Origin: an uncultured Candidatus Saccharibacteria bacterium
GTDB lineage: Bacteria; Patescibacteriota; Minisyncoccia; Phycocordibacterales; DATDWN01
DNA length: 64,000 bases
Assembly (NCBI GenBank): GCA_964453075.1
Contig: CAYVNM010000002.1
Coordinates: 4,279-68,278 of the forward strand
Reading direction: 5' to 3'
Shown here: positions 18,828 through 62,630 of the stretch, in pieces
Position numbering within the stretch: the stretch's first letter is position 1
Layout: each line of letters begins with the position of its first letter
The notes under the pieces: model-generated
What the model was told of the DNA's origin: nothing
The model's input: only the letters and a program-made list of their open reading frames with translations
Databases searched by the model: none
Program-made: the position numbers and the translations under genes

Positions 18828-19019
18828 TTACACCTTCCTCTGTCGAACCTTCCTGGTTCCATTGTGCCCGTGAGAACCCTTCTTCGGATCCTGTGGCACA
18901 ACCTTCTCTTCTCGTCCCTTGGGTGGATTGACCAGAACTTCCGCCTGCGCGGACCCCTCGGTTGCGACTGCAAACGGAGAGTAGAACGCTTTCGTTGCTG
19001 GAAACAATCTATGGGCCAT
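18828..19019 (-). CDS. Small basic protein of atypical GC-rich composition (gene K), unknown function.
   Basis: 63 aa: MAHRLFPATKAFYSPFAVATEG...KKGSHGHNGTRKVRQRKV. Strong SD (taGGAGGttgtccaATG). Local GC far above background. Upstream palindrome CAGAGTCTcccAGACTCTG (19239-19257). Confidence 0.45.
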   Translation of the reverse strand: MAHRLFPATKAFYSPFAVATEGSAQAEVLVNPPKGREEKVVPQDPKKGSHGHNGTRKVRQRKV

Positions 19020-19301
19020 TGGACAACCTCCTATACCAGGATACTAAAAACTTAGATTAATACAAGTATTATAGTTAAACCAGAGCCTACGAGACTCTGC
19101 TGAGAGTGAACCATATCGTCACGAGTTTTAAAAAGCCGACACTTAAGAATCTCGAAACTTACAGTTTCTGTACACCTGTTCTGTTTTTTACTTCGTAAAC
19201 TCGTAAAAAACTATCACAGGTTTTCGAGTCCTGACACAGAGTCTCCCAGACTCTGCTGAGGGTAAACACGTAAAAAAGCACCTTACGTGCTTTTTTTCGT
19301 G

Positions 19302-19375
19302 TCCGCCCTCCAGGACTCGAACCTGGGACCCCAGAGGTATAAGCTCTGTGCTCTAACCAACTGAGCTAAGGGCGG
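19302..19375 (-). tRNA. tRNA-Ile(UAU) (AUA decoder).
   Basis: Minus-strand sequence CCGCCCT-TA-GCTC-AGTTGGTTA-GAGC-A-CAGAG-CTTATAC-CTCTG-GGGTC-CCAGG-TTCGAGT-CCTGG-AGGGCGG-A. The anticodon loop CTTATAC gives UAU. Terminator hairpin lies immediately downstream (19273-19300). Confidence 0.7.
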
Positions 19376-19429
19376 ATTTTGGTTAGCTAGTGACTATAAC
19401 AAAATAACACATTTTACAGAAAAACAAAA

Positions 19430-19639
19430 TCAATGATAATCAGTTTTTCTATTCACTATCTTATGAGCTTCTGCTATAGCCTCTTCCGGTGTAATTTCAC
19501 CTTGATTTAGAGCTATAAGTAGATTATCAAGAGCAGGTATCTCAAAATCATTGGCACCCATCACAGCGGCCTGTTGTTTCATTTCCCCTATTATCATAAC
19601 CGCTTGTTCTTTTTGATTTTTGTTTGGCTCTCCTTCCAT
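19430..19639 (-). CDS. Small acidic hypothetical protein downstream of ftsH.
   Basis: 69-aa ORF. Confidence 0.3.
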   Translation of the reverse strand: MEGEPNKNQKEQAVMIIGEMKQQAAVMGANDFEIPALDNLLIALNQGEITPEEAIAEAHKIVNRKTDYH

Positions 19640-19652
19640 AAAATAATTATAT

Positions 19653-22241: not shown

Positions 22242-22637
22242 GGGGATGCCAGGTTTAGACAAGTAAATTCTTTGACAATGTGCATGGTAGAGCTCTAGAA
22301 TCTCTTTAAACCTCTAGAAAATGTAAATGCAAAAAATACATTTACAAAAGCAGTTCCTTCACCATTTATGGCGAATGGATTTGCTCTCGCTTTCGCTTAA
22401 TCTTTTAGATTAAACCAAAACGGCGGCTATTCTCTGAAGTCTGTTACGGGAAATAGTTGATATATCTTCGGACTAGGAATCGTTTTAGTTTCGAGACGCT
22501 TCTGAACTAAAGAAAACTGGACTTTTATTTATTTTGTAAGCTTAAAGAATAAAAGTTGAGAAAAATAAAACTTACTACACCATGTAGAAACATTATCAAA
22601 ACTTATTTGCACGGGGGTTCAATTCCCCCCTTCTCCA
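22242..22637 (+). ncRNA. ssrA: tmRNA (ssrA).
   Basis: 5' GGGGATGCCAGGTTTAGAC. Tag reading frame GCG AAT GGA TTT GCT CTC GCT TTC GCT TAA (22371-22400) gives ANGFALAFA-stop. 3' tRNA-like T-arm GGGGG-TTCAATT-CCCCC plus acceptor CTTCTCC-A. G3:U wobble as in tRNA-Ala. Followed by a long hairpin terminator (22629-22684). Adjacent to smpB. Confidence 0.85.
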
Positions 22638-22920
22638 CAATAACGAGCCACCCGCAAGGGTGGTTTTCGTTATTGTGGAGAAGGAGCAAACCAGACGGTT
22701 CTGGTTTGCGTGGGGATTTGAAAACCTTTGATAGTTTTTTGTGAGTTTGCGAAACAAAAAACAGAAAAGTTATACTGAAACTGTAAGTTTCGATTCCCCC
22801 TATAATAGATATTTTGTGAGCGGCAACGAACAAAATATTCCTGACCTAATCCACCCTTCTCCACAACTATTGACATTAATTAATTGGTGTGATATCTTGT
22901 GTAAAGGAGGGAGATTTGCG

Positions 22921-23109
22921 ATGACCGAACTGGAAATGAGCCTCGGGAACATCAAGACTGCTGTCGACGCTCAGGCAAAGCTCTTGGAAGCTGCGTTGGC
23001 ACTTGCCGAGGGAAGTGTGGATAAACACAATTCTCTCCTGCTTGAAGCGAAGAACATTTTCGATGCACGCATCGCCGAGCTCAAGAAGGAACTCGAGCAG
23101 ATGGAGTAG
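22921..23109 (+). CDS. Small coiled-coil protein of atypical GC-rich composition (gene E).
   Basis: MTELEMSLGNIKTAVDAQAKLLEAALALAEG...ELKKELEQME. Promoter TTGACA-17-TATCTT (22868-22896), SD AAGGAGG, and terminator agaccgc...gcggtct after the stop. Confidence 0.5.
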   Translation: MTELEMSLGNIKTAVDAQAKLLEAALALAEGSVDKHNSLLLEAKNIFDARIAELKKELEQME

Positions 23110-23275
23110 CCACACCCACCAACAGACCGCATGGTTCGCCCAGCGGTCTTCGTCTTTATATAAATTTAAATAATTTAAAAAAATAAAATATATTCCCCTG
23201 TATACCACCCCCCTCCATTGACTAACCTCCCAAAGAGAATATAAATATATACAGACAACAACCCAGGAGGGCTTT

Positions 23276-23443
23276 GTGGAACAGCAACAAGCGTTCACCG
23301 AGAAGCCTCTCCAGCGTTTTTTAATGGATGTGGCTTTTGGACTTTGTATCTGTTTGTTTGTTTTCCTTTTTCATCTTGTAGAAGTCAAGAAACTTGAGAT
23401 GAAAAAGGTAAACGATGCTTCGATGACCACGCCCACCCCCTAA
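23276..23443 (+). CDS. Small hydrophobic peptide (gene L, about 55 aa, GTG start), atypical composition.
   Basis: cAGGAGGgctttGTG start context. Promoter TTGACT-16-TATAAA (23218-23245). Product ...MDVAFGLCICLFVFLFHLVEVKKLEMKK.... Terminator cccgccacgtcccccacggacctggcggg-ttt. Confidence 0.35.
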   Translation: MEQQQAFTEKPLQRFLMDVAFGLCICLFVFLFHLVEVKKLEMKKVNDASMTTPTP

Positions 23444-23745
23444 CCCGCCACGTCCCCCACGGACCTGGCGGGTTTACCATTGTTATTCTATTTTAAAACA
23501 AAAGCGCCTGTAGGGGCACTTTTGTTTTGAACCTAAAACCAAGTATATTTTTTAAAACAAGGAGAAATTTTTTACAATAAATGCCATTGTAATAATGTTG
23601 GTGATCAATGTCGCCCATAGAATTAAGTAAGCTGACATTGGTAATTTTATTTTTTGTGGATTCATTGTTTTTAGTATTATTTTTAGTAAAGCCCTACGCA
23701 AAACCTTATTATAGAATTAATTTGTTTATTAAACAACACCAGATG

Positions 23746-30626: not shown

Positions 30627-30683
30627 TAAAATTCAGACTACTTAAATCTTGCTGGAACGATGAGTTCGCCAGATTTAGAAATT

Positions 30684-31955
30684 CTAGTACTCGCGAATAG
30701 ATACCTGAGCATCTATCTTCTTAATCAGATCGATAACCACAGAGACCACGATAAGTAGAGATGTTCCTCCGATAGAAACAGCTGTTATGCCCGTTGCACC
30801 CTTCATTATAAGAGGAAGAACTGCTATAACCCCCAGAAACAAAGCTCCAACCAGTGTTAGGCGAGTTAATATTCTGGATATGTGATCAGATGTAGATTTT
30901 CCTGGTCTCACACCTGGTATAAAAGCTCCATTTTTTTGAAGATTTTCTGATATTTGATCCGGATCAAAAGTAACTGCTGTATAGAAGTATGTAAACACAA
31001 AAACCAAAAAGAAATAAGCAATAGCGTAAAACCAACTATTAGCAAGAATGTTTAGTATAAAACCAGACACTGATTGGACTGTTAAATTACTTGCACCTTG
31101 CAAAAATCTCAAGATCATTTGAGGGAACAAAAGAATAGACAAGGCAAATATTATAGGAATAACTCCAGCTTGGTTGATTCTTAATGGTAAATAGGTAGAT
31201 GTTCCACCATATACCTTATTTCCCCTAACCTGCTTTGCATAAGTAACAGGTATTGGTCTTTCTGCTTCTGTAATAATAACAACGCCAACTATAACAACAG
31301 CCGCAATAGCTATGAAAGCTAGATAAATAGGCAATTGAGATATCTCAAAGGTAAACACCAATTGACCCAATGTTACTGGTAGATTAGCTACTATACCTGC
31401 GAATATTATTAGCGATACTCCATTTCCTATACCGTACTCTGATATAAGCTCACCTATCCACATGAGAAGCACAGAACCTGCTGTAATAACTATTAAGTTA
31501 GTAACCATTTCAAGTGATGTAAGTTTTTCCAAAACTTGCTGGTTTTCCAAAAGCTTTATAAAGCTAAAGGCCTGAATTATAGAAAGTGGAATAGAAAGCA
31601 TTCTACTGTATTGAGCAAATTTTCTTTTTCCAGCCTGACCTTCCTCTTGGTACATCTCTTTCAATCTTGAGGACATAATGGTCATAAGCTGCATAATAAT
31701 AGAAGCAGTAATATAAGGACCAACTCCGAGCATCACAATGGAGAGTTGAGACAAACCTCCACCTGAAAATAGATTGAGCAATCCAAAAAATTCATTACCA
31801 GAAAAGAAAGCAGCTAATTTAGCAGTATCAACTCCTCCTATTGGGACAGAAGCGAGTACACGAAACAGCACCAAAGCAAAAAGAGTAAAGAATATTCTTT
31901 TTCTTAAAACACTGTCCTGAAAAATTAAAACGAATTTATTAAGAAAATTTTTCAT
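30684..31955 (-). CDS. secY: Preprotein translocase SecY.
   Basis: 423 aa with 10 TM helices. Position after rplO. Confidence 0.9.
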   Translation of the reverse strand: MKNFLNKFVLIFQDSVLRKRIFFTLFALVLFRVLASVPIGGVDTAKLAAFFSGNEFFGLLNLFSGGGLSQLSIVMLGVGPYITASIIMQLMTIMSSRLKEMYQEEGQAGKRKFAQYSRMLSIPLSIIQAFSFIKLLENQQVLEKLTSLEMVTNLIVITAGSVLLMWIGELISEYGIGNGVSLIIFAGIVANLPVTLGQLVFTFEISQLPIYLAFIAIAAVVIVGVVIITEAERPIPVTYAKQVRGNKVYGGTSTYLPLRINQAGVIPIIFALSILLFPQMILRFLQGASNLTVQSVSGFILNILANSWFYAIAYFFLVFVFTYFYTAVTFDPDQISENLQKNGAFIPGVRPGKSTSDHISRILTRLTLVGALFLGVIAVLPLIMKGATGITAVSIGGTSLLIVVSVVIDLIKKIDAQVSIREY

Positions 31956-34554: not shown

Positions 34555-34731
34555 ATTTAAATAAAAAAGCTCTTTAAAGCTCGGGTTCATACTAGCAATT
34601 AAGCCTTTTAAAGTCAACATGCTGTTTTCATGTACGAAAAACTGGCACACCCCCAAGGGAATGTGCCAGGCGAGAGATTGGTTTCTCTCGAGAACTTGCC
34701 GGGGTTACGCCCGACGCGTGTACTTGTTGGG

Positions 34732-35274
34732 CTAGCCGATTAGCTTATTCAGGACCGCCGCCCAGTCCTTAGACTCAGCCTTCCGACCAGCATCCTGGAA
34801 AAATCGCAGGACGGCACCGTTCGCGAAGCGGAATGAATCACGTATTCTGGATGATTCCTCCAGAATAGACCCTTCCGCATTCTGGTGATGGTGGTTGGAG
34901 AAAACCACCGCCACAAACCTGGTCCCAGCTGCTATTGCCGACAGGGCAAGCTGGTAACCCACCAACTTCTCAGTGCCCCAGTCCGAATTGTGATAAAATC
35001 CATCAAATGGCATCATGCCGTCCGACAACACGACATCCCACGGAACACCAGCACTGAAATCCTCGTAATGCTTGTTGCTCCAGGACGAATAGCTGCCAAT
35101 CGAACGACCTGCCGTGAGATTGGCAACCTTGCGGTTCTCCACCGAATCTCCCCGACTAATGAGCATGTTGCCCATGTCGTAACTTGCAGTGGTGAACACG
35201 TCGTGTGACCCCCCCAATTGGGCGATGGCCCCATCGAGGTTTTCCTGCCGATCGTCAATAACCAAGATCTTCAT
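34732..35274 (-). CDS. GC-rich inserted gene A: divergent CheY-like receiver-domain protein. Unknown function. Lies inside the spc operon between rplE and rpsZ.
   Basis: MKILVIDD...DVVLSDGMMPFDG...RFVAVVFSNHHH receiver-like motifs with long insertions. Extended -10 TGTATAAT, SD AAGGAG-ctacc-ATG. Composition clearly above background. Confidence 0.55.
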   Translation of the reverse strand: MKILVIDDRQENLDGAIAQLGGSHDVFTTASYDMGNMLISRGDSVENRKVANLTAGRSIGSYSSWSNKHYEDFSAGVPWDVVLSDGMMPFDGFYHNSDWGTEKLVGYQLALSAIAAGTRFVAVVFSNHHHQNAEGSILEESSRIRDSFRFANGAVLRFFQDAGRKAESKDWAAVLNKLIG

Positions 35275-35461
35275 GGTAGCTCCTTGGCCCCTAGGGCCGG
35301 AAAAAGTGGTTGTCAAACTGTCCACCTAAAATTATACACCTATTTAATCTCTTTGTCAATTGTTTTTGCCGATACCCACCCTCTAAACAGCAAAATAGCC
35401 CTATATTTAGGGCTATTTTTGCAAAATCCAAGGGGAGTCCTTGGATTTTAGTAATTTTCTG

Positions 35462-43692: not shown

Positions 43693-43837
43693 GAAATCCC
43701 TCCTTTATTAATTTAAAGCACTTATACCAGATTTGTCAAATATAAGAACCACCTTTTATTCCTCCTTTAATAACTACCTAGTCTATAAAGTTAAGAACTG
43801 GTTTTGAATTTGATACGAGAATAGTATTATACAAAAA

Positions 43838-43945
43838 TTCCAATTTTAAATGCAGTACCAGGTGGACAAGAAAAAACCGCGAGCCTTACAAAGATAAGGT
43901 GAGCGGCTTTTTTCGTAGTCCAAACGCAATGCATTAAAATTGGAA
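43838..43945. repeat. Intergenic repeat element R1 (terminal IR attccaattttaaatgc/gcattaaaattggaat plus an internal bidirectional terminator).
   Basis: 16-bp terminal IR. Core ggacaagaaaaaaccgcgagccttacaaagataaggtgagcggcttttttcgtagtcc shared with R2. Confidence 0.6.
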
Positions 43946-43955
43946 TTTTTGTAGT

Positions 43956-45322: not shown

Positions 45323-45619
45323 TTAAGCCGTAACTAGGAGATCTCGCTTTAGATTATTCCTTTCCTCTATCACTATTTGGTCAAATGTGGGTATCTTTGA
45401 CTTAAGAAATGATAATACATCCTGAGGAGTTGAATTGTCGTTATCTAAAATAGAGTCAAATTCTTCTTGTTCCTTTTCAGACAAGATATCTAGAGCTCTA
45501 ACTAAAATTGCCTGATATATCATCTTGCCCATCCTATCAACCACATCAGCCTGTTTATCTGGAGGAAGTGAACCAAGACCCCAGTCTTCTATGATATCTT
45601 TTGATAAAATATTATTCAT
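45323..45619 (-). CDS. Small acidic hypothetical protein.
   Basis: 98-aa ORF directly downstream of the large protein. Confidence 0.35.
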   Translation of the reverse strand: MNNILSKDIIEDWGLGSLPPDKQADVVDRMGKMIYQAILVRALDILSEKEQEEFDSILDNDNSTPQDVLSFLKSKIPTFDQIVIEERNNLKRDLLVTA

Positions 45620-45623
45620 AATT

Positions 45624-48572
45624 TTATTTTATTTGTAAAAATTTCTTCACATTTTTAAAAGCTCGCTCATATGCGTTATCATCAAGAAACCAACCCCCTT
45701 TTAAACCACTATCAAACTTTAGCTTTGGGCTCAAGACTGACCCTTTTACCTCCATTGAACCACTAGCTATCTCTTTTCCATTGAGCAAAACTTTCATTCC
45801 CATTGGATCATCTTTCAATCCTTGAACTATGTAGATCTTCCCGCCCTCAAACTCAACCGCAGTAGGACTTGATCCAATCTGATCAACTCTAGCGCTTTTT
45901 TCAAAAGCTTTTGCAAAGGCACTTCTCAAATCTTTATATTTTGCACCATCTTGAAATTTATCATCCAAGACCAATAATTTTCCGTTACCAAATGTCTGTT
46001 CGTGGGCTATGGTTTGGTCACCAAACTTGACTATTTTACTCTCCCCTTCGGCCAAAACCTCAACCACAGAATCATTGTGAGGAATTTGATAAACAACATT
46101 TGTTGGTCCTGAAGTATCTACTGTTGGTATTATTTTTGGTTCTTCTGGAATTGTTGCCTGTTCTACGGGTGCCATTCTAGAATCCCATTCAGGCACTTTT
46201 GCCTCTATTACTGCCGGATGATCGACATCAACAGGAACATCAGCCAATTTCTCTGCAATCAAAGTAGTATCTTGAGTTGGTACTACTGCTTCTTGGGGAG
46301 CTTGTTTTAAAGTATCTCTACCAATATGACTCAATGTTTCCTTTGTACCATCCACATGTTCAATTATCAACTGTCCATTATCATTCATTGAGAGCTTCTC
46401 TCCAACAAAACCCACGGCACTATCATTAACCTCTCCTGGTTTATATAATCCATAATCTTTTGCTATCTCAACTGTCGGCCTGTCTATTATGTTCTTTTTG
46501 ATTTCTGGAGGAATATTATCACCGTACTGTTTTATAATATTTGCCTTGAGATTATGAATGTCTTGCAAGAATCCCTTTGAACTCAGCTCAACTTTTATGG
46601 AAGACTTTTCAAAAACAGCAGATGGTTTGGCAGTATCAATCGTATTTGCTACCGCTTCTTTATTTGGCAAAGCTGTTTCCAAACTCCCCGCTTGCATTGT
46701 TTTTGGTTTTATTACCCCATCAAATGGAGCTGAAACTTTTGTTTGTGTAATTTTTGGTTTGTTTGGTATTGATTCTGTATTACTTCCTCCAATTCCTACA
46801 CCAGAAGACAGCGCTGACTCTGCAAGTCCTGTCAAAATACCAGCACCTGCACCAGCACCAACCATCACCATGGCTTTTTTTATTCTTTGATTGTTTTTTC
46901 TTTTCAATTCTTCTTCTCTGGCTTGCATGTAACCTGTCTCTCTTTGCTCAAAGGTCTTACCTGAAGACTCATCTGTATAATCTGAAATACTTTTTTCTTT
47001 GGCCTCTGTATTAATTTTATCTGTCCTCTTTCCATATATATTACCAGCAACCCTAGAACCAAAAGCTCCTCCTATACCCCTACCCAAACGAGTTCCTGCA
47101 TATAGAGCGCCAGCGCCAAGACCAGCAGTTAAGCCGACTCCCGTACCTATGAGTATTGGAGCAACAGCCATACGTAAAGGAGCTGGAACTTTTGACCAGA
47201 CCTTAAGTCCTTTGGCAGCCAATTCTTTTACCTTTTGTATCTTCTCATTATCCCCAGAAGACAATGAATCAATTTGCTCTTGTAATAAATTCCACTCTTG
47301 TTCTGCCTGTTCTAATAACTTTATTTTAATTTGACCCAACATCTCCGCTTCCTCTTCTGGAGTCAGGGGTGTACCACCCTGTTCTTTTTCTATAGCTTGA
47401 GTCTCAAAAACATCGATTATTTCGTCTTTTTTTATTTTTTTCTGACTAATGTATGCGGCCAAGGCTTCATCTAGATTATTTTGAGCTTCTTCCAAATCTA
47501 TCTCTGTTGGAGATTTTTCTTTTGAACGTCCAGATAAAATTCCACCAGAAAGCAACCCTTCTAAAGAACCTTTTATTTTATTGTACTTACTATTTTTTTT
47601 GTTAAATTCTATTTTTGCTCGAGCATAATTTTCACGAGCCAAATCCAAATCAGTCTTAGCCTTTTCAACCGTCTCTGGGGCCAAATCAACCAACTTGTGT
47701 TCTGATTCTGTAACCACATCAGGTTCTGGAGTGGCCACTGGTTCAACTGAATCTAGTTTATCAACAGTCGCACCAGACATCTCTGCCGATAAATCATTTG
47801 TTTTTTCTATATTAGTCTCTGTTGGAACTGGATTGATTGCATCTTCTTTTTTTTGTATTGATTGCAACCATACAATCCTCTTTTCCTCATCTTCGATGTT
47901 ACTTACCACCTCACGAGCAGAGCCAAAATTCTTACGTGCAATAAAAATACGAACCAAATCCTCCAGAGACTGATTTTGTTTGTTTTTATCTTTGATTTGT
48001 CTTGCATAACCGATAGCCTTAGTTAGATCCGATGACCATGTATTACCAAACAACGTTAGAAGTTCTTGATCAGAATCTGCAACCACATTATTCATACCTG
48101 TATCTATTACAGATATCTCTGGGTCTGATTCTGATTCATTTTTTGGTTCATCAATAAAACCAAGAGCCGTATTGTATTCTGATTCCGTTAAATAATGCAA
48201 TGAATAGTACTTACCAAGTGCCTTTACCATTGACTTTCTAGGCATATTTTCCATGCTGTGTAATAAAGATCTTTTTGGCACCTTTTCAGATAAACCATTA
48301 ATATAATCCACCAAACCCTTGGGCATAGGAAAAATCTCTTCCCTTTTTTCACCCTCTGGACTGGGTTGATTATTAATTACAGGCGCTGAAGGAGGAATTG
48401 CAGATAAGTCCAAATTGTCTGTTGGTTTTTGGGGAACTTCAGAAAAATCACGTATCCCAGAAGAAGGTTCTGGTTGAAGTTTTAATTCTTGTCCGGCCAA
48501 AAAATCTAGTGGATTTTTTGATGTATTTAGATGCAAATCTAGATCATCTATTCTTTCTGCAGGAGTTGCCAT
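45624..48572 (-). CDS. Large (982 aa) hypothetical membrane/surface protein with glycine-zipper TM segments.
   Basis: Acidic coiled-coil N-terminal half. Two Gly-rich hydrophobic segments (VAPILIGTGVGLTAGLGAGALYAG, VMVGAGAGAGILTGLAES). C-terminal roughly 400 aa globular part. Confidence 0.5.
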   Translation of the reverse strand: MATPAERIDDLDLHLNTSKNPLDFLAGQELKLQPEPSSGIRDFSEVPQKPTDNLDLSAIPPSAPVINNQPSPEGEKREEIFPMPKGLVDYINGLSEKVPKRSLLHSMENMPRKSMVKALGKYYSLHYLTESEYNTALGFIDEPKNESESDPEISVIDTGMNNVVADSDQELLTLFGNTWSSDLTKAIGYARQIKDKNKQNQSLEDLVRIFIARKNFGSAREVVSNIEDEEKRIVWLQSIQKKEDAINPVPTETNIEKTNDLSAEMSGATVDKLDSVEPVATPEPDVVTESEHKLVDLAPETVEKAKTDLDLARENYARAKIEFNKKNSKYNKIKGSLEGLLSGGILSGRSKEKSPTEIDLEEAQNNLDEALAAYISQKKIKKDEIIDVFETQAIEKEQGGTPLTPEEEAEMLGQIKIKLLEQAEQEWNLLQEQIDSLSSGDNEKIQKVKELAAKGLKVWSKVPAPLRMAVAPILIGTGVGLTAGLGAGALYAGTRLGRGIGGAFGSRVAGNIYGKRTDKINTEAKEKSISDYTDESSGKTFEQRETGYMQAREEELKRKNNQRIKKAMVMVGAGAGAGILTGLAESALSSGVGIGGSNTESIPNKPKITQTKVSAPFDGVIKPKTMQAGSLETALPNKEAVANTIDTAKPSAVFEKSSIKVELSSKGFLQDIHNLKANIIKQYGDNIPPEIKKNIIDRPTVEIAKDYGLYKPGEVNDSAVGFVGEKLSMNDNGQLIIEHVDGTKETLSHIGRDTLKQAPQEAVVPTQDTTLIAEKLADVPVDVDHPAVIEAKVPEWDSRMAPVEQATIPEEPKIIPTVDTSGPTNVVYQIPHNDSVVEVLAEGESKIVKFGDQTIAHEQTFGNGKLLVLDDKFQDGAKYKDLRSAFAKAFEKSARVDQIGSSPTAVEFEGGKIYIVQGLKDDPMGMKVLLNGKEIASGSMEVKGSVLSPKLKFDSGLKGGWFLDDNAYERAFKNVKKFLQIK

Positions 48573-48643: not shown

Positions 48644-50785
48644 TTATTTTCTACTTTCTACAATAGTCTTCTCAACGTTTGGTGGTACAACCTCGTAATG
48701 ATCAAACTCCATCATCACACTTCCTCTACCCTGTGTCATAGAACGAATATCAGTAGTGTAACCAAACATTTCTGACAATGGAACTTTGGCATGAATAACT
48801 CTGAGCATTCCCCTCTCTTCCATTCCTTCAATTTGACCTCTCTTTCCTGAAAGTGATCCTGTAACATCACCCATGAACTGTTCTGGCATGATAGCATCAA
48901 CTTTCATAATTGGTTCTAGAATAACTGGACGAGCTCTTTTGGCTGCGTCCTGGAACGCCTGTGAAGCTGCGATCTTGTAAGCGATTTCTGAAGAGTCCAC
49001 ATCGTGATATGAACCGAACGTAAGCTCACAAGAAACATTTACCATTTTGTACCCAGCAACAATTCCTCGGTCCATAGCCTCGTGAACACCCTTCTCAACT
49101 GCTGGAATAAACTCTTGAGGAATGACACCTCCTTTGATTGAATCAATAAACTCAAAATCTTCGTATCTCTTAACGTTCTTTGGAATTTTTGCCCCTTCTT
49201 CTATTTTTTCAAGAGGTTTGATTGTAAGTTTAACGTGACCATACTGACCCTTACCTCCAGTTTGCTTGATATATTTATGTTCTGCTTCTGCTGTACCCAA
49301 AATAGTCTCTCTGTATGCCACCTGTGGTTTACCAACATTAACCTCCACACTGAACTCTCTCTTCATACGATCAACCATAATCTCAAGGTGAAGCTCTCCC
49401 ATTCCTGAAACTATAGTTTCTCCTGTTTCTGTGTTTGAAGAAACAACAAATGTTGGGTCTTCATCAGAAAGTTTTTTCAAAGCCATACCCATTTTCTCTT
49501 GATCTGCTTTTGTCTTTGGCTCAATACGTAAAGCAACCACGGGAGCCACAAATTTAATTGGGTCTAGAACTATTGGTTTGTTTTCATCACATAGAGTGTG
49601 TGATGTTTTTGCGGATTTCAATCCCACAGCCGCAGCAATCTCTCCAGCAAAAACTTTTTTTACCTCCTCTCTTTTGTCTGCCTGAAGCCTCACAATACGT
49701 CCAAGTCTTTCTTTCTCTCCTGTTGTTGAGTTATATATGTATGTTCCTGCTTCTATTGTTCCAGAATAAACACGGAAGAATGTAAGCTGACCAACGAAAG
49801 GATCGTTTTGCAATTTGAAAGCGAGTGCAGCAAAAGGTTCTTCATCAGAAGCATGTCTCACTGTTTCCTCACCTGTCTTTGGATCCAAACCTCTTACTGG
49901 AGGAATATCTAGAGGAGATGGTAAGTATTCTACAACCGCATCCAAAACAAGCTGGATTCCTTTGTTTTTCAATGCTGAACCGGCCATAACAGGAACAAGC
50001 TTTACTTCCAAACACGCTTTTCTAAGAGTTTTCTTCAACTCTTCTATAGTAGGCTCATTTCCATTTAGAAACATTTCCATTTGAGCATCATCTTGCTCTA
50101 CAATCTTTTCAATAAGTTCTGCTCGGAATTTCTTTGCCTCGTCTAGATACTCTGCAGGAATTTCTGCCTCACGAATATTCATACCCATATTTCCCTCAAA
50201 GTAGTAGGCCTTCATTTTCAAAAGATCTATCACACCCTCAAATTTATCTTCCAAACCAATAGGAATTTGAAGTCTAACTGCATTTTTTGTAAGTCTGTCT
50301 AAAATAGATTCGTATGATCTCTCAAAAGACGCACCTGTTCGATCAAGTTTGTTTATTAGACAGATTCTAGGAACATTACCATCATCCGCGTATCTCCAGT
50401 TTGTTTCAGACTGAGGTTCCACACCAGCCACACCGTCAAACACAACAACCGCGCCGTCCAAAACTCGGAGACTTCTTTTCACTTCAGCTGTGAAGTCAAT
50501 GTGCCCAGGAGTATCAATGATATTGAAACGATACTGTGGTTTACCGTCTTTTGGCATGTAAGTAGGATTCCAAAAACAAGTAATAGCAGCGGCGGTAATA
50601 GTAATACCTCGCTCTCTTTCCTGTTCCATCCAGTCAGTCACTGTCTCGCCTTCGTGTACCTCACCTATTTTGTGTGTCATTCCAGTATAGAAAAGCACAC
50701 GTTCTGATGTAGTTGTCTTACCAGCATCAATGTGAGCAATAATACCGAAGTTTCTAACTCTCTCCAATGGATAATCGCGGTTCAT
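48644..50785 (-). CDS. fusA: Elongation factor G (start at [25 protein letters not shown]).
   Basis: [17 protein letters not shown]. Confidence 0.9.
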
Positions 50786-50906
50786 AATAAAATAATAATT
50801 TAATAAATAAAAAAGCCCTAGGGCAATCACACAAAACTATATACTAAAAGAACTTCTGTTGCAATACAGATTAGACTGTGTTAGAAATGCCTTCAGGAGG
50901 TACCCA

Positions 50907-51152
50907 ATGAAAGTGCTGAAAATGTTCGAGGTTGCTGAAGCATTGTTCCGAGTTGGTGGAGGTGAACACAGATTCCAACTCGGAATCCCCGTCACCGTCA
51001 AAAACACCAGTACGGGAGAAGAAATCAGAATCGTCGGAATTGAAGTCAACGAGACCTACAAGGATGTCGTGCATCTGTACGCCGAAAACAGCATCCAAGC
51101 TCTCAGCCCCGACAACTTCGAGATCGTCGGACCAGCGCCAGACGCCCAGTAG
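50907..51152 (+). CDS. GC-rich gene F (81 aa, unknown).
   Basis: Promoter TTGCAA-17-TAGAAAT, SD AGGAGGtacccaATG, terminator aaggccccgagtaattaggggcct-tt (51157-51183). Confidence 0.5.
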   Translation: MKVLKMFEVAEALFRVGGGEHRFQLGIPVTVKNTSTGEEIRIVGIEVNETYKDVVHLYAENSIQALSPDNFEIVGPAPDAQ

Positions 51153-51202
51153 AACCAAGGCCCCGAGTAATTAGGGGCCTTTCGACTACATCAAAAAATA
51201 TT

Positions 51203-51394: not shown

Positions 51395-51527
51395 GCAAAC
51401 ATAATAATACTTTTGAGAGTTTTATACAAAAATCCAATGGTTGCCTTTTGGTTTTGTATATACTTACCCGTCAACCCACTGATGGACAGAAAAAAGTTTA
51501 GAATAAACAAGAAGAACTACGTGATAT

Positions 51528-51878
51528 TTACGTAGTTCTCTTTGAGAAATGTACCAGGTGTTCAAGAAGCAGTGAAAGTCTTACGGGCACACCCGCAGCG
51601 TCAGCGATACCTGCAAGGTATCTGAGCTCGTCACCTGTAAGCGTTTGATCCGGCGCCAGAACTCGCTTCCCCAACTTTGAAAGAAAAGCCAGGCGATCGA
51701 CTGGAACGCCAAGAACCTCAGCAACGTGCTCTAGGCGTTTCTTCGGTATGGGGCGCGTACCGTTCAGTACCTGCTCGTACATGAACGCAGAGAAACCAAG
51801 TAGTTTACCAAACTCTCCCTTAGTCTCACCGCGCTCAACTCTTTTTGCCTCAAGTAACTTCTCAATCTCACTCTTCAT
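51528..51878 (-). CDS. GC-rich gene G: XRE-family helix-turn-helix transcriptional regulator.
   Basis: GETKGEFGKLLGFSAFMYEQVLNGTRPIPKKRLEHVAEVLGVPVDRLA is an HTH_XRE motif. Promoter TTGACA-17-TAGTTT, SD AGGAGGgttctaacaATG. Confidence 0.6.
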   Translation of the reverse strand: MKSEIEKLLEAKRVERGETKGEFGKLLGFSAFMYEQVLNGTRPIPKKRLEHVAEVLGVPVDRLAFLSKLGKRVLAPDQTLTGDELRYLAGIADAAGVPVRLSLLLEHLVHFSKRTT

Positions 51879-51973
51879 TGTTAGAACCCTCCTGCTCAAA
51901 AACTACCACAGCGACAAAAGCTGTCAAATTTTATGAGAACTTTTGAATAACCTCAAAATAAGCTAAAAAAGTT

Positions 51974-52088
51974 TTCACAATTTGAATGAAACCCGAGGCG
52001 GACAAGAAAAATGACCCGAGCCGTACTGTCGTACGGTGAAGGGTCATTTTTTCGTAGTCCAACAAAGGAGTTCGTCAAATTTGGAAAC
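51974..52088. repeat. Intergenic repeat element R2 (immediately 3' of the rpsG stop).
   Basis: ttcacaatttgaa...ggacaagaaaaatgacccgagccgtactgtcgtacggtgaagggtcattttttcgtagtcc...gttcgtcaaatttggaaac. Hairpin with A- and T-runs gives a bidirectional terminator. Confidence 0.6.
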
Positions 52089-52091
52089 TTT

Positions 52092-52562
52092 TTACCAAGC
52101 AAAATGGGCAAAAGCTTTATTAGCCTCCGCCATCTTATGCGTATCCTCTCTCTTCTTAACTGCCTTACCTTCGTTTTTTGAAGCTAGTATTATTTCGTCA
52201 GCAAGTCTCTCTGCCATAGGAGCACCCTTTCCCTCTCTGGCTGCATCAATAATCCATTTCATTGATAGAAAAGATCGTCTTTCTGGTCTTACTTCCCTTG
52301 GGATTTGGTAGTTAGCACCACCAACGCGTCTACTTCTTACTTCTGTTAGAGGTCCTGTGTTTTTCAAAGCTGTATCAAACACCTCCATAACATCCTCTAC
52401 TTTGGCCTTTTCTTTGACTGCCTCTAGTGCCTCATAAACAATTTTCTGAGCTGTAGCTTTTTGACCACGCAACATAACGTAGTTGATAAATTTACCAATT
52501 TTTTCTGAACCATATTCATGGTCTTTGCCTACTATATTTCTGTTTGTAACTTTTCTTCGCAT
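52092..52562 (-). CDS. rpsG: Ribosomal protein uS7.
   Basis: VRSRRVGGANYQIPREV. Confidence 0.9.
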   Translation of the reverse strand: MRRKVTNRNIVGKDHEYGSEKIGKFINYVMLRGQKATAQKIVYEALEAVKEKAKVEDVMEVFDTALKNTGPLTEVRSRRVGGANYQIPREVRPERRSFLSMKWIIDAAREGKGAPMAERLADEIILASKNEGKAVKKREDTHKMAEANKAFAHFAW

Positions 52563-52575: not shown

Positions 52576-52989
52576 TTATTTACCCTTTGGTTTCTTTACT
52601 CCGTATCTTGAGCGACCCTTTGCTCTCTTCTCTACTCCTGTTGCATCAAGCATGCCTCGTACTATTGTATATCTAACACCTACGTCCTTTACCTTTCCAC
52701 CTCTGAGCAATACCACTGAGTGCTCCTGTAAGTTATGGCCCATTCCTGGAATATATGCTGTTACTTCAAGACCGTTTGTTAGACGAACTCTGGCGATTTT
52801 ACGAATAGCTGAGTTTGGTTTCTTTGGAGTCTTGGTTGTAACTTTTGTACAAACACCTCTTTTGAAAGAAGATGGGTAATAAACCGGTCTGTTTGTAAGA
52901 GTATTGAATCCACGAGTTAAAGCAACGGCCTTTGGTTTTGGTCGAGGTTTGAATCTCTTTCTCTTAATTAATTGATTGATTGTTGACAT
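52576..52989 (-). CDS. rpsL: Ribosomal protein uS12 (start at MSTINQL).
   Basis: [10 protein letters not shown]...[14 protein letters not shown]. Confidence 0.9.
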
Positions 52990-53032
52990 TGCAGGGTTTA
53001 CTCTAATATATCTAGTTAAAAAACGCAAGTAG

Positions 53033-53922: not shown

Positions 53923-54010
53923 TCCTGAAATTACTTTAAATAACAACGAGCGGCCGGTCTCTACACGATAGATCCCGGCCGTTATGATATGCGCCATATG
54001 ATACTCTCCC

Positions 54011-54193
54011 TCACGATGCAGCTCGGTTTTTGTCTGGCGTTTCCTGTTCCCGCCAAACAACACGCCCACACTCTGGACAAGCCCATTTCTCCATGACCGG
54101 CCCAATACCAGTCAAGAAAGGTACGGGTTTGCCGTTGCGATCGAGCACACGCTCGAACTCCACATCACACTTTATGCAAGTTTTCTTGTCCAT
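54011..54193 (-). CDS. GC-rich gene H: 60-aa zinc-ribbon protein.
   Basis: CIKCD...CPECG (C4). Extended -10 tgTATAAT, SD GGAGAGGAGGtgtgccATG. Confidence 0.45.
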   Translation of the reverse strand: MDKKTCIKCDVEFERVLDRNGKPVPFLTGIGPVMEKWACPECGRVVWREQETPDKNRAAS

Positions 54194-54241
54194 GGCACAC
54201 CTCCTCTCCTAAAATAATTATACATTAAATAACAAACAGCT

Positions 54242-54490
54242 TCACCTTTTGGGCGAAGCTGTTCTAAGAAAAGAAAGATCGACGGACGAGACCTGCTCCT
54301 CCACAACGACTTCCACGAGATTGAAGTTTGAACACTCTTCTGGATTCGGGAGACTATCGATGTGGCGCCGAACTACCGCCTCCATCAATCTTTCTGAGTT
54401 AGCCTTGAACTCAAACTTCCCCACGACAAACTTCAGTGGAGAAAGAGAGTGAGCAGTCCTAACCCAAGTAAGTCTGTACTTATGAACCAT
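54242..54490 (-). CDS. GC-rich gene I (82 aa, unknown), immediately upstream of gene H on the same strand.
   Basis: SD GGAGGtgttatATG. Atypical composition. Confidence 0.4.
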   Translation of the reverse strand: MVHKYRLTWVRTAHSLSPLKFVVGKFEFKANSERLMEAVVRRHIDSLPNPEECSNFNLVEVVVEEQVSSVDLSFLRTASPKR

Positions 54491-54542
54491 ATAACACCTC
54501 CAGATGGAACTCTACCAAAAACTTATTCTTATAACAACAATA

Positions 54543-58454: not shown

Positions 58455-58757
58455 ACTTTTTATATACGAAAAACGGCGCCCTCTTTCGAGAACGCCGTGG
58501 AAGTATGGGGGTTGGTTTACGGCTGTATCCCCCGGGGTCGCCAGCCCTTAGCCTACGTGTGCGCCGGGTCTTCCAGCCCAACGACTGAATCTACCACGGT
58601 GGCATTATATTTTAACTCTTAGAAAGATCTTTGAATCCGGACATTTCGCTTATAAGCTGGCTGTTCCGGCAGGCCAAGGAGACTTGAGCCCTGATTCTCC
58701 CAACAGGTCATATTTCTGGCCTTATTTCTGCGACACCCCTTTCGGTTTGTCTTTCGG
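58455..58757 (-). ncRNA. Candidate structured ncRNA (about 300 nt), identity unresolved (RNase P RNA, SRP RNA or novel).
   Basis: Near-consensus promoter TTGACA-17-TATACT on the minus strand (58764-58792). Intrinsic terminator cggcgccctctttcgagaacgccg plus a T-run at the 3' end (58455-58486). GC-rich. No ORF longer than 33 aa and no SD. Confidence 0.5.
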
Positions 58758-58807
58758 TTTATTTATCTTGTATAAGTATATCACAGTACTATATTTCTGT
58801 CAAGCGA

Positions 58808-60559: not shown

Positions 60560-60779
60560 AGTTCGTACAATGATTACTACCGAAATTAATTTATAATATT
60601 ATAATTACCACTTTGTTATTTCCCGTGAATCTCTAACGGGATTCATTTCATTAGTGTAACACACTAATATAGACATAAATAACAACAAATATGATAAAAT
60701 ATTGTCTATGGATCCCGTTAGAAGTCTCAGTGACTCTGATCACGGATTGCAACTTTTATAAACATTTTAATTCAATATT

Positions 60780-61196
60780 ATGTTAACAAACACTGATACT
60801 TCTAACGGGACAAGCAATTGTATATTTTGCAAAATAGTGAAAGGAGATCTTCCTTCACATCGGGTTTATGAGGATGATAATTTTTTGGCATTTCTAGATA
60901 TCAACCCTGAGTCTCCTGGACACACTTTAGTTATACCGAAAGAACACTACCGCTGGGTATGGGATGTTCCAAATGCCGGAGAGTATTTTGAAGTTACCAA
61001 GAAAATTGCACTGGCACAGAAAAAAGCTTTCAACACTGATTTGGTTATTTCTAGGGTTGTAGGAGAGGAAGTTCACCATGCACACATCTGGGTATTCCCT
61101 GCTTCTTTCAACAAAGGAGAATTTGAAAAGACGGCAGGTGACAAAAAAGACTTCGCTGGAAATGCAGAAAAAATAAAAAAGGAATTGCAAAACTAA
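60780..61196 (+). CDS. HIT-family (histidine triad) hydrolase.
   Basis: CIFCKIV...PESPGHTLVIPKEHY...HHAHIWVFP. Confidence 0.8.
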   Translation: MLTNTDTSNGTSNCIFCKIVKGDLPSHRVYEDDNFLAFLDINPESPGHTLVIPKEHYRWVWDVPNAGEYFEVTKKIALAQKKAFNTDLVISRVVGEEVHHAHIWVFPASFNKGEFEKTAGDKKDFAGNAEKIKKELQN

Positions 61197-61951
61197 ATTG
61201 ACTCAACTAGTTTTATTATTTCAATAAAATCTTTTGCTCTTAAACTTTCTCGTCCAACTAAGAGGCCCGAAACATTTCCATCACGAACAAGCGAGTCTGC
61301 GTTGACCCTATCAACATCTCCTCCATAAAGAATTTTCATGCTATCTGAAAAAGTTCCACACAAATCTTTCAAAACTTTTTTAATAAAAATAGAAGTCTCA
61401 AGTAGGTCCCTTGGGCTCATGGACTCCCTCGCTCCGATAGCCCACAAAGGTTCGTAAGCAATAATAACTTTGTCTAACATTTTTTTTGGAACATCTTTGA
61501 GTCCAGACACAATTTGCTGTTTTATGAAATTATAAAAATCTCCATTTTGATCTCTCATCTCCTCCCCTACACAAAGTATGGCCGTCATACCACCACCAAC
61601 TACTGCTCTAACTTTTTTATTTATCAACTCATCACTCTCTCCCATTTTTCTTCTCTCTGAATGTCCGACAATCACATAGTCAACTTTGAAATCTGATAGC
61701 TCCGTGTAGCTCACTTCACCAGTGAAAGGTCCTTGTGACTCATAGTTTGCATTTTGAGCACCCAGAAAAAAATTAGAATCTGAAAGAGAAGTGAGGGGTG
61801 GTAGAAAAACAAAAGGAGGACAAACAACCACATCTGTTTTTTTCAGTTCTCGTGTTGCTCTCTTTACACTCTGCGCTAGTTTTTTTGCTTCATCCAAACT
61901 TTGTGGGTTCATCTTCCAATTTCCCACAACAAGCTTTTTAGATTTCTTCAT
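61193..61951 (-). CDS. tpiA: Triosephosphate isomerase.
   Basis: GNWKMN, IVGHSERR, and AYEPLWAIG catalytic motifs. Confidence 0.85.
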   Translation of the reverse strand: MKKSKKLVVGNWKMNPQSLDEAKKLAQSVKRATRELKKTDVVVCPPFVFLPPLTSLSDSNFFLGAQNANYESQGPFTGEVSYTELSDFKVDYVIVGHSERRKMGESDELINKKVRAVVGGGMTAILCVGEEMRDQNGDFYNFIKQQIVSGLKDVPKKMLDKVIIAYEPLWAIGARESMSPRDLLETSIFIKKVLKDLCGTFSDSMKILYGGDVDRVNADSLVRDGNVSGLLVGRESLRAKDFIEIIKLVESI

Positions 61952-62201
61952 CCCGTTAGAAATAGGAAAGCTTTTTGAAAAACCTTTCCATAGTTACTTA
62001 ATAATAAATGTAAATGATTATGTTTCCCGTTATAACCAGCATCTCTCACAAAATAACAAAATGATTTCTAACGGGACAAGTCCTTACAATTATATCACAA
62101 CAGTTTTTATACGAAAAAACCCGATACAGAGAATCTGTATCGAGTGTGTAGGTAGGGTGCCGAGGCACCCTACCTTGGATGTACTACCCACTGCCCAGGA
62201 A

Positions 62202-62630
62202 CTAGCAAGCGGGCTTGCGAACCCCGAGAAAACGATCGTCCTTGTACCAGCTACCTCTCCACACACCAAGCCCTCGCAAAGAGGAGCAGAACTTGCTGAG
62301 ATATGCCACACAAAGGTCAGTGTGGTCCCAGCAAAATGAGCCCAAAGCGACAATCACGAATTCTCGCTGGATGTGGGGATACTTCGACCCAAAATCCAGA
62401 AGTTCGTGGATGGTTGCCGGTCGGAATCCCAACCTGTCTATCTCCGAGATAGCCTCACTGCGCGAGATGAACCTGTTGAGGTGTATGAGCTCGGCGCTCA
62501 CTTGCACTTCGCCAGTTCCCGTCTTGGGGAAATTCGCCTCGGTGATGCGAAAGTCAACCTTATCGTAATTTCCAGCCGCAACCATGTCGGCCACGGTAAG
62601 ATTGTGGTTAACAACGAGTTCGTACACCAT
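62202..62630 (-). CDS. GC-rich gene B (142 aa, unknown).
   Basis: Extended -10 TGTATAAT, SD AAGGAGatataccATG, and a double-hairpin terminator at 62100-62200. The 5' region is homologous to that of gene A. Confidence 0.5.
   Translation of the reverse strand: MVYELVVNHNLTVADMVAAGNYDKVDFRITEANFPKTGTGEVQVSAELIHLNRFISRSEAISEIDRLGFRPATIHELLDFGSKYPHIQREFVIVALGSFCWDHTDLCVAYLSKFCSSLRGLGVWRGSWYKDDRFLGVRKPAC

Follow-up and report, generated by a model that had tools for sequence, protein, structure and literature searches.

Self-contained, GC-rich accessory genes with strong Shine–Dalgarno sites at the operon boundaries of a Patescibacteria chromosome

Patescibacteria have tiny genomes and depend on other cells, and the S10/spc cluster of ribosomal-protein genes often serves as a fixed marker block in phylogeny and binning. 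The stretch of DNA analyzed here (the window) covers 64 kb of an 86,401-bp contig of a Patescibacteria metagenome-assembled genome (MAG); it has a GC content of 0.376 and carries twelve small genes of raised GC content, islands A to L, some of which are wedged between ribosomal-protein genes. What are these genes, and how did they come to stand where they do? The most probable answer, to which we assign a probability of about 0.62, is that they are moron-like, self-expressing accessory cassettes from a GC-richer gene pool that uses Shine–Dalgarno (SD) sites, and that they are gained and swapped at operon boundaries. Together with a thirteenth, non-coding locus, the twelve would then form a class of independent, self-contained accessory cassettes and not one family or one system.

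Anatomy of the islands

All twelve open reading frames (ORFs) are open at the coordinates given by the first-pass annotation of this DNA, and the foreign-looking composition that it had remarked upon by eye is borne out by GC content at third codon positions (GC3) and by codon usage. The GC content of the islands is raised, over a range of 0.43–0.55 rather than the 50–55% estimated then, with L, J, C and I at the lower end; GC3 is 0.43–0.75 compared with 0.19–0.37 in native genes. In pooled counts, A occupies 0.18 of third positions in the islands and 0.38 in native genes, and the synonymous preference is inverted in nearly every codon family (ACC, 0.44 in islands against 0.09 in native genes; AAG, 0.69 against 0.26). 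The sharpest contrast between islands and native genes in the window is that of the SD site. An SD core (AGGAGG, GGAGG, AGGAG or AAGGAG) stands 5–10 nt before the start codon in 12/12 islands, where ten had been counted earlier, whereas a 5-mer SD, the criterion used, was found in 0/67 native ORFs of at least 90 amino acids (aa), including tuf, rplB and rpsJ, the starts of which are unambiguous. Since the native genes have no SD, the cassettes must use a translation-initiation signal different from that of the core.

This association is also seen outside the window. In six other Patescibacteria loci with called genes, an SD precedes 9/11 high-GC3 genes and 6/76 of the rest, and over 80 relatives, counted with a liberal start search, the proportions are 46% and 15%. 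The rule is not absolute, as two of the four cassettes at one related locus (L083, see below) have no SD. The native operon-first genes rpsJ, rplC and rpsN begin only 10–30 nt from an extended −10 box of the TGCTAGTAT type, which suggests that native mRNAs have very short leaders or are leaderless.

The earlier description of the islands as autonomous cassettes agrees with their expression signals, as far as these can be read from sequence: a sigma-70-type promoter and a hairpin terminator bracket each ORF. The best promoter is that of A (a perfect TTGACA-17-TATAAT, 12/12 consensus), and the −35 boxes of F, I and K are weak. Each cassette consists of a sigma-70 promoter, a short leader with a strong SD, one small ORF of GC-rich codons and an intrinsic terminator. 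The islands, with their predicted signals, are as follows.

K, 18782–19081, minus strand: −10 box TATAAT within 19066–19081; SD and ATG at 19017–19033; ORF 18828–19019, 63 aa; terminator hairpin 18782–18814; downstream of tRNA-Ile(TAT)
E, 22870–23157, plus strand: promoter TTGACA-17-TATCTT at 22870–22898; SD AGGAGGG; ORF 22921–23109, 62 aa, coiled-coil-like; terminator 23123–23157; downstream of the transfer-messenger RNA (tmRNA) gene
L, 23218–23475, plus strand: promoter 23218–23245; SD AGGAGG; ORF 23276–23443, 55 aa, one hydrophobic helix; terminator 23444–23475
A, 34631–35359, minus strand, between rplE and rpsN: 12/12 promoter 35331–35359; leader with ACAGTTTGACAAC at 35309–35321, then a hairpin followed by AAGGAG at 35272–35298; ORF 34732–35274, 180 aa, receiver fold; two terminators; cassette end TTTTTCGTACA at 34631–34669
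C, 39326–39955, minus strand, between rplB and rpsS: promoter TTGACG-16-TAGAGT at 39730–39757; AAGGAG and GTG at 39684–39700; ORF 39375–39686; hairpin 39326–39348; GC-rich module upstream, with terminator 39762–39789
D, 42590–42917, minus strand, between rpsJ and rplC: promoter with TG extension 42889–42917; AGGAGG; ORF 42646–42870, 74 aa, GC3 0.75–0.77; terminator 42590–42643
J, 43423–43739, minus strand, between tuf and rpsJ: promoter 43710–43739; AGGAGGG and TTG start; ORF 43465–43692, 75 aa, helix-turn-helix (HTH)-like; terminator 43423–43460
F, 50859–51182, plus strand, between rpsG and fusA and opposite to the operon: weak promoter 50859–50887; AGGAGG; ORF 50907–51152, 81 aa; terminator 51157–51182
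G, 51502–51927, minus strand, between rpsG and fusA: promoter 51900–51927; AGGAGGG; ORF 51528–51878, 116 aa, XRE-type HTH; terminator 51502–51540
H, 53938–54226, minus strand: extended −10 box TGTATAAT at 54214–54226; AGGAGAGGAGG before the start; ORF 54011–54193, 60 aa; terminator 53938–53982
I, 54227–54540, minus strand: weak promoter 54509–54540; GGAGG; ORF 54242–54490, 82 aa; terminator 54227–54264
B, 62108–62714, minus strand, between pgk and tpiA: promoter 62686–62714; leader resembling that of A, with ACAGTTTGACAAC at 62663–62675 and a hairpin with AAGGAG at 62628–62656; ORF 62202–62630, 142 aa, C-type-lectin fold, family of variable proteins of diversity-generating retroelements (DGRs); 3' hairpins 62151–62174 and 62108–62142; cassette end TTTTTCGTATA
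Thirteenth island, 58463–58803, minus strand, between rnhA and recJ: GC about 0.48; promoter TTGACA-17-TATACT at 58775–58803; terminator 58463–58498 ending TTTTTCGTATA

Two of these assignments call for comment. For C, the first-pass annotation gave 39375–39824; the start is most likely the GTG at 39686, with a product of 103 aa, because AAGGAG stands 7 nt upstream and the members of its 90% cluster are 103 aa long. Between the rplB terminator and the C promoter lie about 190 nt of GC-rich sequence (39762–39955, minus strand) with a TTGACA box of their own, ending in a strong terminator (caccactc...gagtggtg TTTTT); this stretch might represent a small transcript or what is left of an earlier cassette. 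The NCBI annotation leaves out E and L and places an antisense ORF of 140 aa over both (22876–23298, minus strand), which makes the coding assignment of E less certain; judged by promoter, SD and terminator, the two plus-strand ORFs are to be preferred to the antisense one. L has the weakest compositional signal of the twelve (GC 0.43). An exact copy of the K protein has been called in an IMG contig, and its 90% cluster includes an ENA member. Another ORF with high GC3, at 243–587, was considered as an island and rejected, as it is probably an antisense frame of a ligase gene.

The first-pass annotation spoke of a dispersed gene family. All-against-all BLASTP that included more than 600 gap ORFs of the 80 relatives linked no island to another and none to the relatives; as the twelve products have no detectable mutual similarity, they are a family only in the sense of a class.

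Could the GC-rich blocks instead be structured non-coding RNAs with chance ORFs, or chimeras of assembly or contamination? GC-rich islands in AT-rich genomes are often RNA genes, two islands are missing from the NCBI annotation as described above, and the thirteenth island consists of about 300 nt of GC-rich sequence with no convincing ORF; the 321 nt at 58455–58775 fold with z = −2.9 relative to shuffled sequences. Rfam at gathering score, however, returned the tmRNA, three tRNAs and nothing else in the window, and no match in the islands; a permissive search of 34.3–44.0 kb gave two sub-threshold matches at chance level, both outside island ORFs, and one of 58.38–58.86 kb gave none. Furthermore, SD and start codon are in register in 12/12 islands, the folds predicted for A and B are confident, and purifying selection is seen where homologues exist (dN/dS of 0.23–0.33 for B, 0.05 for H and 0.37 for I; for A, nonsynonymous differences pN of 0.31 against synonymous differences pS of 0.78). 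Finally, A, H/I and B are not chimeras or assembly artefacts, as their contexts are identical in assemblies made independently from other samples: the same A gene occupies the same site in L117, and H and I the same site in L118. For A, B, C, G, H and I, this explanation is refuted in large part; its probability overall is minimal, and both the RNA and the artefact versions were rejected. For the thirteenth island, which has no Rfam match and is absent in relative L120, a novel small RNA or a decayed cassette may be considered.

Operon boundaries and turnover among relatives

Loci from relatives are designated here by L-numbers, and junctions were surveyed in 80 Paceibacteria relatives. Ribosomal protein L2 of the window is 69–86% identical to that of MAGs labelled 'Zambryskibacteria', 'Paceibacterota' and 'Parcubacteria'. 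Four relatives are used repeatedly: L022 (about 80% nucleotide identity; L2, a partial copy, 96% identical), L083 (L2 95% identical), L084 (about 85% nucleotide identity) and L120 (70–80%, syntenic over about 20 kb).

The str–S10–spc cluster of the window, supported by Pfam, lies on the minus strand (rpsL 52576–53028, rpsG 52092–52562, fusA 48644–50830, tuf 43956–45152) and continues from tuf with rpsJ, rplC, rplD, rplW, rplB, rpsS ... rplE, rpsN, rpsH ... secY. The Pfam assignments place the islands as tuf/J/rpsJ/D/rplC, rplB/C/rpsS and rplE/A/rpsN. The four islands noted earlier in S10/spc are thus confirmed; with G and F in the str operon (rpsG/fusA), the number in the whole str–S10–spc cluster becomes six of twelve.

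The first-pass annotation had held these junctions to be essentially never interrupted in bacteria. In most of the 80 relatives they are expanded, and the expansion is confined to particular junctions:

tuf/rpsJ: median gap 110 bp, maximum 1926 bp
rpsJ/rplC: median gap 145 bp, maximum 1710 bp
rplB/rpsS: median gap 1171 bp, maximum 9698 bp
rplE/rpsN: median gap 96 bp, maximum 2946 bp
rplC/rplD, rpsS/rplV, rpsN/rpsH and rplX/rplE (unaffected): median gaps 17–51 bp, maxima at most 225 bp

The expanded gaps contain mostly same-strand ORFs, the GC3 of which is often well above the locus background. When the sites are empty, as those of A and C are in L022, the boundary is kept: rplB and rpsS are still separated by a terminator and a promoter, and immediately after rplE comes the rpsN promoter. 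The native promoters concerned are the following.

34589–34617, minus strand: native rpsN promoter, TTGACT-17-TAGTAT with TG; conserved in L022, directly after rplE
39284–39312, minus strand: native rpsS promoter, TTGACA-17-TAGTAT; conserved in L022, there preceded by a terminator that follows rplB
42547–42580, minus strand: native rplC promoter, TGCTAGTAT type; repeats the rpsJ promoter (43380–43413)

By these signals, the affected junctions are transcription-unit boundaries in the clade even when empty, which would explain why insertions are tolerated there and not elsewhere. In Zambryskibacteria-like Paceibacteria, the str/S10/spc region would be divided into the native units rpsL–rpsG, fusA, tuf, rpsJ, rplC–rplB, rpsS–rplE and rpsN onward, and the cassettes would occupy only the neutral gap that separates the terminator of a native unit from the promoter of the unit that follows. 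With the region cut into several units, its internal gaps become recurrent hot spots of cassette gain, loss and replacement. Comparison with sister genomes had been proposed as a check on whether the cluster is otherwise uninterrupted; the cassettes do vary, but the junctions themselves prove to be clade-wide hot spots. The pattern is therefore more general than was supposed: a clade-wide class of cassettes at operon boundaries.

The str operon is also split by native genes in this clade, since the interval between fusA and tuf (45323–48572, minus strand) holds an ORF of 982 aa without a Pfam match and a DUF5663 gene, both of native composition and conserved in relatives (L083, L120). In more distant Paceibacteria (L031, L039, L040, L044 and others; at least 16 genomes), the rplB–rpsS interval contains four conserved genes which, by reading of the sequences, are rplJ, rplL, an HTH-like protein and a multi-pass membrane protein; the presence there of rplJ–rplL and two others marks this junction as an old operon break.

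The content of the boundaries changes among relatives. In L022, A and C are absent; L083 has four unrelated GC-rich genes at the same four S10/spc junctions, including another receiver-like protein at rplE/rpsN; and a homologue of C follows rplB in a Paceibacterota MAG (by consecutive accessions). In L120, F, J, D, H and the non-coding island are absent. There, the H site holds an unrelated ORF of 67 aa and the I site a strongly diverged I-like ORF (by reading of its translation), and a B-family gene of 39% amino-acid identity follows pgk at the site of B. The positional G orthologue in L120 (rpsG/fusA; 72% amino-acid identity) retains its SD and has a GC3 of 0.37 compared with 0.48 in the window, a case of partial amelioration toward host composition. 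Small gene families of the relatives also occupy different junctions in different genomes.

In addition, parts of cassettes are shared. Islands A and B have about 85 nt of promoter and 5' untranslated region in common (78% identity), with a compensatory change in the hairpin that precedes the SD. At rplE/rpsN, in place of A, L084 carries a B homologue (57% amino-acid identity) with B-type 3' hairpins, and the leader before this ORF is 83.5% identical to the A leader of the window, matching the divergence of the flanks. The only three occurrences of TTTTTCGTAYA in the window (0.12 expected) mark the 3' ends of A, of B and of the non-coding island. A B-type ORF behind an A-type leader, the shared A/B leader and these shared ends indicate that cassettes move between boundaries and that ORFs are exchanged behind common end modules. 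In a fuzzy search of the fetched loci, the A/B leader was found in the window (twice) and in L084 only, and an exact-pattern scan of IMG/VR and JGI metagenomes gave unrelated or chance matches, so that the leader was rejected as a widespread element. Retro-copying of mRNAs was likewise rejected, because the similarity of A and B begins at the −35 box, upstream of any transcript.

These comparisons bear directly on the proposal that the islands are parts of one dispersed system of defence, addiction or regulation, which would co-occur and cooperate. The common style of promoter, SD and terminator would suit such a system, and, as speculation, the common leader of A and B could mean co-regulation, with the XRE protein G as a candidate regulator. 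However, the islands do not co-occur: L022 is without A and C, L120 has only G and the I-like and B-like genes, L083 has unrelated genes, and L084 has a B-type gene at the A site of the window. The leader motif stands upstream of A and B only. Searches of the islands for toxin–antitoxin or defence families in Pfam, PHROGs and PADLOC returned only generic HTH matches for G and J (PADLOC itself gave generic HTH only), and gave no evidence of an addiction module. A dispersed multi-locus system, as envisaged in the first-pass annotation, was judged exceedingly improbable and was rejected.

Products of the islands and a link to diversity-generating retroelements

The island products are real, selected proteins of unrelated kinds, with A, B, G/J and H distinct from one another and the others orphans. 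The receiver-like, XRE and zinc-ribbon products recognized earlier by eye were all recovered: A by its predicted fold, G as an XRE-type HTH protein and H by its CxxC...CxxC zinc ribbon. J is a second HTH protein, similar to phage HTH regulators (PHROG HTH regulator, E = 2.9e-5).

AlphaFold models of A and B have a predicted local distance difference test score (pLDDT) of 81 and a predicted template-modelling (TM) score (pTM) of 0.81. Almost all of the top 50 PDB matches of the A model in Foldseek are receiver domains (probability about 1.0, TM 0.4–0.67), and A is, on this model, a stand-alone protein with a receiver (CheY-like) fold. Against Pfam, including PF00072, A matched no family at E <= 0.1, and no kinase is encoded in the window. 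Residues D7, D8 and D85 are invariant in the six-member A family, which would be consistent with the acidic pocket of receivers (two N-terminal Asp and a phospho-acceptor Asp).

A word-prefiltered search found six homologues for A, four for B and two for G. An exhaustive profile search for B, in contrast, recovered 6210 cluster representatives; the rise from four to 6210 shows that the prefiltered counts are an artefact, and the six of A and two of G are not evidence of rarity.

The B profile leads to a DGR. At locus L126, a Patescibacteria contig of 38% GC contains a complete DGR at 2202–4906, in which the B-family member P0054 (E = 1.9e-50 and 1.3e-74 to the B profile) adjoins bAvd and a reverse transcriptase (RVT_1). 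The last 133 nt of P0054 match a downstream template repeat (TR) at 127/133 positions, and 6/6 mismatches fall at TR adenines. By these adenine-only mismatches between variable repeat (VR) and TR, P0054 can be regarded as a proven DGR target. In its fold, the B model belongs to the C-type lectin/FGE type of DGR variable proteins, and TvpA is among its matches. By profile and predicted fold, B thus belongs to a C-type-lectin-fold family that is targeted by DGRs. DGR variable proteins with this fold include TvpA and Mtd, and DGRs occur in the candidate phyla radiation (PMC8144416, PMC11661182). The likeness to such proteins concerns B only, one of 12 islands. A GC-rich hairpin lies 3' of the B stop codon and is conserved in L084; however, neither a TR, an Avd nor a reverse transcriptase for B was found in the 64-kb window, and the B protein is identical in the window and two other assemblies, which gives no sign of current diversification. 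A DGR in the window was rejected, as the 3' end of B has no repeat there.

Origin of the cassettes and related systems

The SD and GC signature would fit cassettes drawn from a pool of GC-richer, SD-using genes in circulation among Patescibacteria, and acquisition from a higher-GC donor or host, as suggested by the first-pass annotation, is possible. A GC-rich reservoir exists, since a B-family domain in a 54%-GC genome has a GC3 of 0.51, close to that of its own genome (neighbours 0.52–0.67). Most gene transfer of Patescibacteria takes place within the phylum, and their islands carry novel sequences (PMC12455944). Replacement of cassettes would most likely proceed in two ways, by homologous recombination via the conserved flanking genes and by recombination within shared modules such as the A/B promoter and leader and the 3' end TTTTTCGTAYA. 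GC-biased gene conversion was rejected as a cause of the high GC: the core genes on either side would lie in the same recombination tracts, yet they show no GC enrichment.

Several observations weigh against this origin. Neither a donor lineage nor a vehicle came to light: in 2.9 M viral contigs, A and B were absent and the A, B and broad B-family profiles gave no confirmed match, and PHROGs and PADLOC gave the generic HTH matches of G and J alone. No integrase, transposase, target-site duplication or attC-like repeat was found at the cassette flanks. GC-rich Paceibacteria relatives also have no SD usage and are therefore poor donor candidates. The B family has a GC3 of 0.59–0.68 in five AT-rich genomes although its synonymous sites are nearly saturated (pS 0.58–0.71), and the A family has 0.60–0.63 in three genomes. 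In the L126 DGR, the target has a GC of 0.54 and an SD, whereas its Avd and reverse transcriptase have a GC of 0.33–0.35 and no SD, so that the compositional split runs within a single functional system. GC-rich B and A families across AT-rich genomes and the split in L126 fit a maintained composition better than repeated recent import.

Could the islands then be residents? They would be a fast-evolving gene class, a long-standing second compartment of adaptive and interaction genes (DGR targets, small regulators, receiver-like proteins). The class would owe its GC and SD to active maintenance, whether through selection or through a dedicated mechanism such as a separate initiation channel or mRNA stability, and it would diverge very quickly or undergo allelic replacement at fixed sites. 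Besides the B-family composition and the L126 DGR just described, the clade-wide link of SD to high GC3 speaks for residence, as do genes of one kind at one site: B-family genes downstream of pgk in the window and L120 at only 39% amino-acid identity, receiver-like genes at rplE/rpsN in the window and L083, and the I-like ORF retained in L120. Against residence stand the empty sites of close relatives, the occurrence of one family at different loci, the shift of the G orthologue toward the composition of its host and the lack of an SD in two of the four L083 cassettes; the near-host composition of the B-family domain in the 54%-GC genome also points to a GC-rich reservoir. A resident class is possible, if rather unlikely.

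A bolder version, which we regard as tentative and unlikely, extends this to a two-compartment genome in Zambryskibacteria-like Patescibacteria and perhaps more of the phylum: an AT-rich, SD-free core and GC-rich, SD-dependent single-gene cassettes, including DGR targets, with the signature maintained through a separate translation-initiation channel. The channel might consist of ribosomes with a free anti-SD, as in Flavobacterium ribosomes that lack bS21; alternatively, the signature could serve as a portable 'expression standard', with which a cassette would function in whichever recipient of the shared pool it entered. In Bacteroidia, translation is SD-blind as the anti-SD, which the 16S rRNA keeps, is sequestered by bS21, bS18 and bS6 of the ribosome, and the rare SD gene rpsU is translated by a ribosome subpopulation (PMC7797042, PMC9976891, PMC13000453). 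The likeness lies in core genes without SD and a small minority with a strong one, and by analogy a distinct initiation route for the SD-bearing minority is a possibility here. The differences are that Bacteroidia belong to another phylum and that the SD genes here are accessory, GC-rich and variable and not a ribosomal autoregulatory gene.

Two repeated elements lie near the tRNA and tmRNA genes. A conserved element of about 75 nt is found at about 19150–19240 (minus strand), downstream of tRNA-Ile(TAT), and at about 22715–22800 (plus strand), downstream of the tmRNA gene, each copy just upstream of an island (K and E, respectively). Its consensus is GAAAACCTNTGATAGTTTTTT..GAGTTT.CGAA..AAAAAACAGAA...GAAACTGTAAGTTTCGA, and its internal hairpin shows compensatory changes (TTTTTTAC/GTAAAAAA in one copy, TTTTTTGT/ACAAAAAA in the other). 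The last 13 nt of the tmRNA gene, CCCTTCTCCACAA (22628–22640, plus strand), are repeated exactly at 22854–22866, 226 bp downstream, bracketing this element; the repeat may be the scar of a site-specific integration.

Such observations favour a reading of the islands as remnants of decayed mobile elements, prophages or integrative elements, that had integrated site-specifically. K lies just downstream of tRNA-Ile and E/L just downstream of the tmRNA gene, the tmRNA 3' end is repeated, K and E are each preceded by the shared element, G and J are like phage HTH regulators, and one A homologue (L081) lies about 1 kb from an integrase gene, with one ORF between them. Nevertheless, genes for an integrase, for structural proteins and for replication are missing from the window, nine islands consist of one gene without repeats at its borders, there are no relatives on viral contigs, and the tmRNA repeat brackets only the 75-nt element and neither E nor L. 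We consider this origin improbable for the islands.

Among the closest known systems are phage morons, independent transcription units that have been added between conserved phage genes (PMC3594210). As judged from sequence, the islands share with them one small gene with its own promoter and terminator and a GC content unlike that of the neighbours, insertion between genes that are adjacent in relatives, absence or difference in close relatives (empty sites in L022 and L120), and diverse, mostly unknown functions. Unlike morons, they reside in a cellular chromosome, including its ribosomal-protein cluster, with tuf, ribosomal-protein genes, fusA, pgk and tpiA as flanks; no phage genes lie nearby and no viral relatives were found, and the translation-initiation signal of the cassettes is not that of the recipient. 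As the recipient is a cellular chromosome, the islands differ from morons on the defining feature, and they are moron-like only.

They also resemble core-flanked integration hot spots or islets, in which, across a clade, variable accessory genes gather in a small number of fixed intervals between core genes, and Patescibacteria genomic islands, the content of which is phylogenetically ambiguous and novel; genes for translation and transcription that were gained horizontally in this phylum are predominantly ribosomal proteins and tuf (PMC12455944). In contrast to those islands, the hot spots here lie inside str/S10/spc, the units are single genes of 300–850 bp and not multi-gene, and the signature of high GC and SD is not described in that work. 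The full-text literature search returned no paper describing the pattern for Patescibacteria and SD or for higher-GC Patescibacteria genomic islands.

Like the islands, integron cassettes hold one ORF each and build up at defined sites, where they are exchanged. Integron cassettes are promoterless, bear attC sites and are arrayed beside an integrase with a common promoter. Here, a promoter and a terminator come with each unit, and the sites are scattered; no imperfect inverted repeat is shared by the cassette ends, and no integrase was found among the Pfam-scanned ORFs.

A further element recurs beside the islands:

43838–43950, minus strand: AT-rich palindromic terminator element after tuf; arms with a related A/T palindrome, AAAATTGGAATTTT, where the sister copies have CCAAATTTGG
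51974–52091 (after rpsG) and 62758–62886 (after pgk): sister copies
30654–30685 (after secY): partial copy

These elements are about 115–130 nt long, with arms that carry CCAAATTTGG-like palindromes around a terminator hairpin, and stand immediately 3' of stop codons; each full copy has an island directly after it. Their copies vary by site in relatives, with a full copy after secY in L084 and a fragment beside rpmB in L120, and they look like mobile terminators akin to repetitive extragenic palindromic (REP) or miniature inverted-repeat transposable (MITE) elements.

Elsewhere in the window, no rRNA gene was found. ARAGORN identified, at 15685–15772 (plus strand), a tRNA-Ser with the anticodon ACT, unusual because of an A34 unmodified on paper, which lies beside a tRNA-Ser(GCT), and a tRNA-Ile with anticodon TAT at 19301–19375 (minus strand); ATA makes up 41% of native Ile codons. 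Four tandem paralogues of about 147–176 aa, spaced by about 500–610 bp, occupy 4906–7048 (minus strand); the one copy scanned against Pfam (5444–5974) has an N-terminal methylation (type IV pilin-like) motif, and further pilin-like genes and a prepilin peptidase lie at 2126–4829.

The machinery with which Patescibacteria interact with hosts and adapt rapidly is likeliest to be found among their accessory genes. In this clade, such genes can be sought by a simple sequence rule that combines high GC3, a strong SD and a promoter and terminator of their own, and the rule picks out a protein of a DGR-target family as well as other selected, unannotated proteins. The S10/spc gene order is an operon-boundary hot spot in the clade, and its mosaic composition could explain why island predictors flag the ribosomal-protein regions of Patescibacteria as horizontally acquired (PMC12455944). 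Should a separate initiation route lie behind the SD dichotomy, these bacteria would join Bacteroidia as the second natural case of SD-independent core translation with an SD-dependent minority, and the minority would here be tied to the mobile gene pool. The remaining puzzle, and the main interest of these cassettes, is why the accessory class is uniformly GC-rich and SD-led when the genes of its host are neither.

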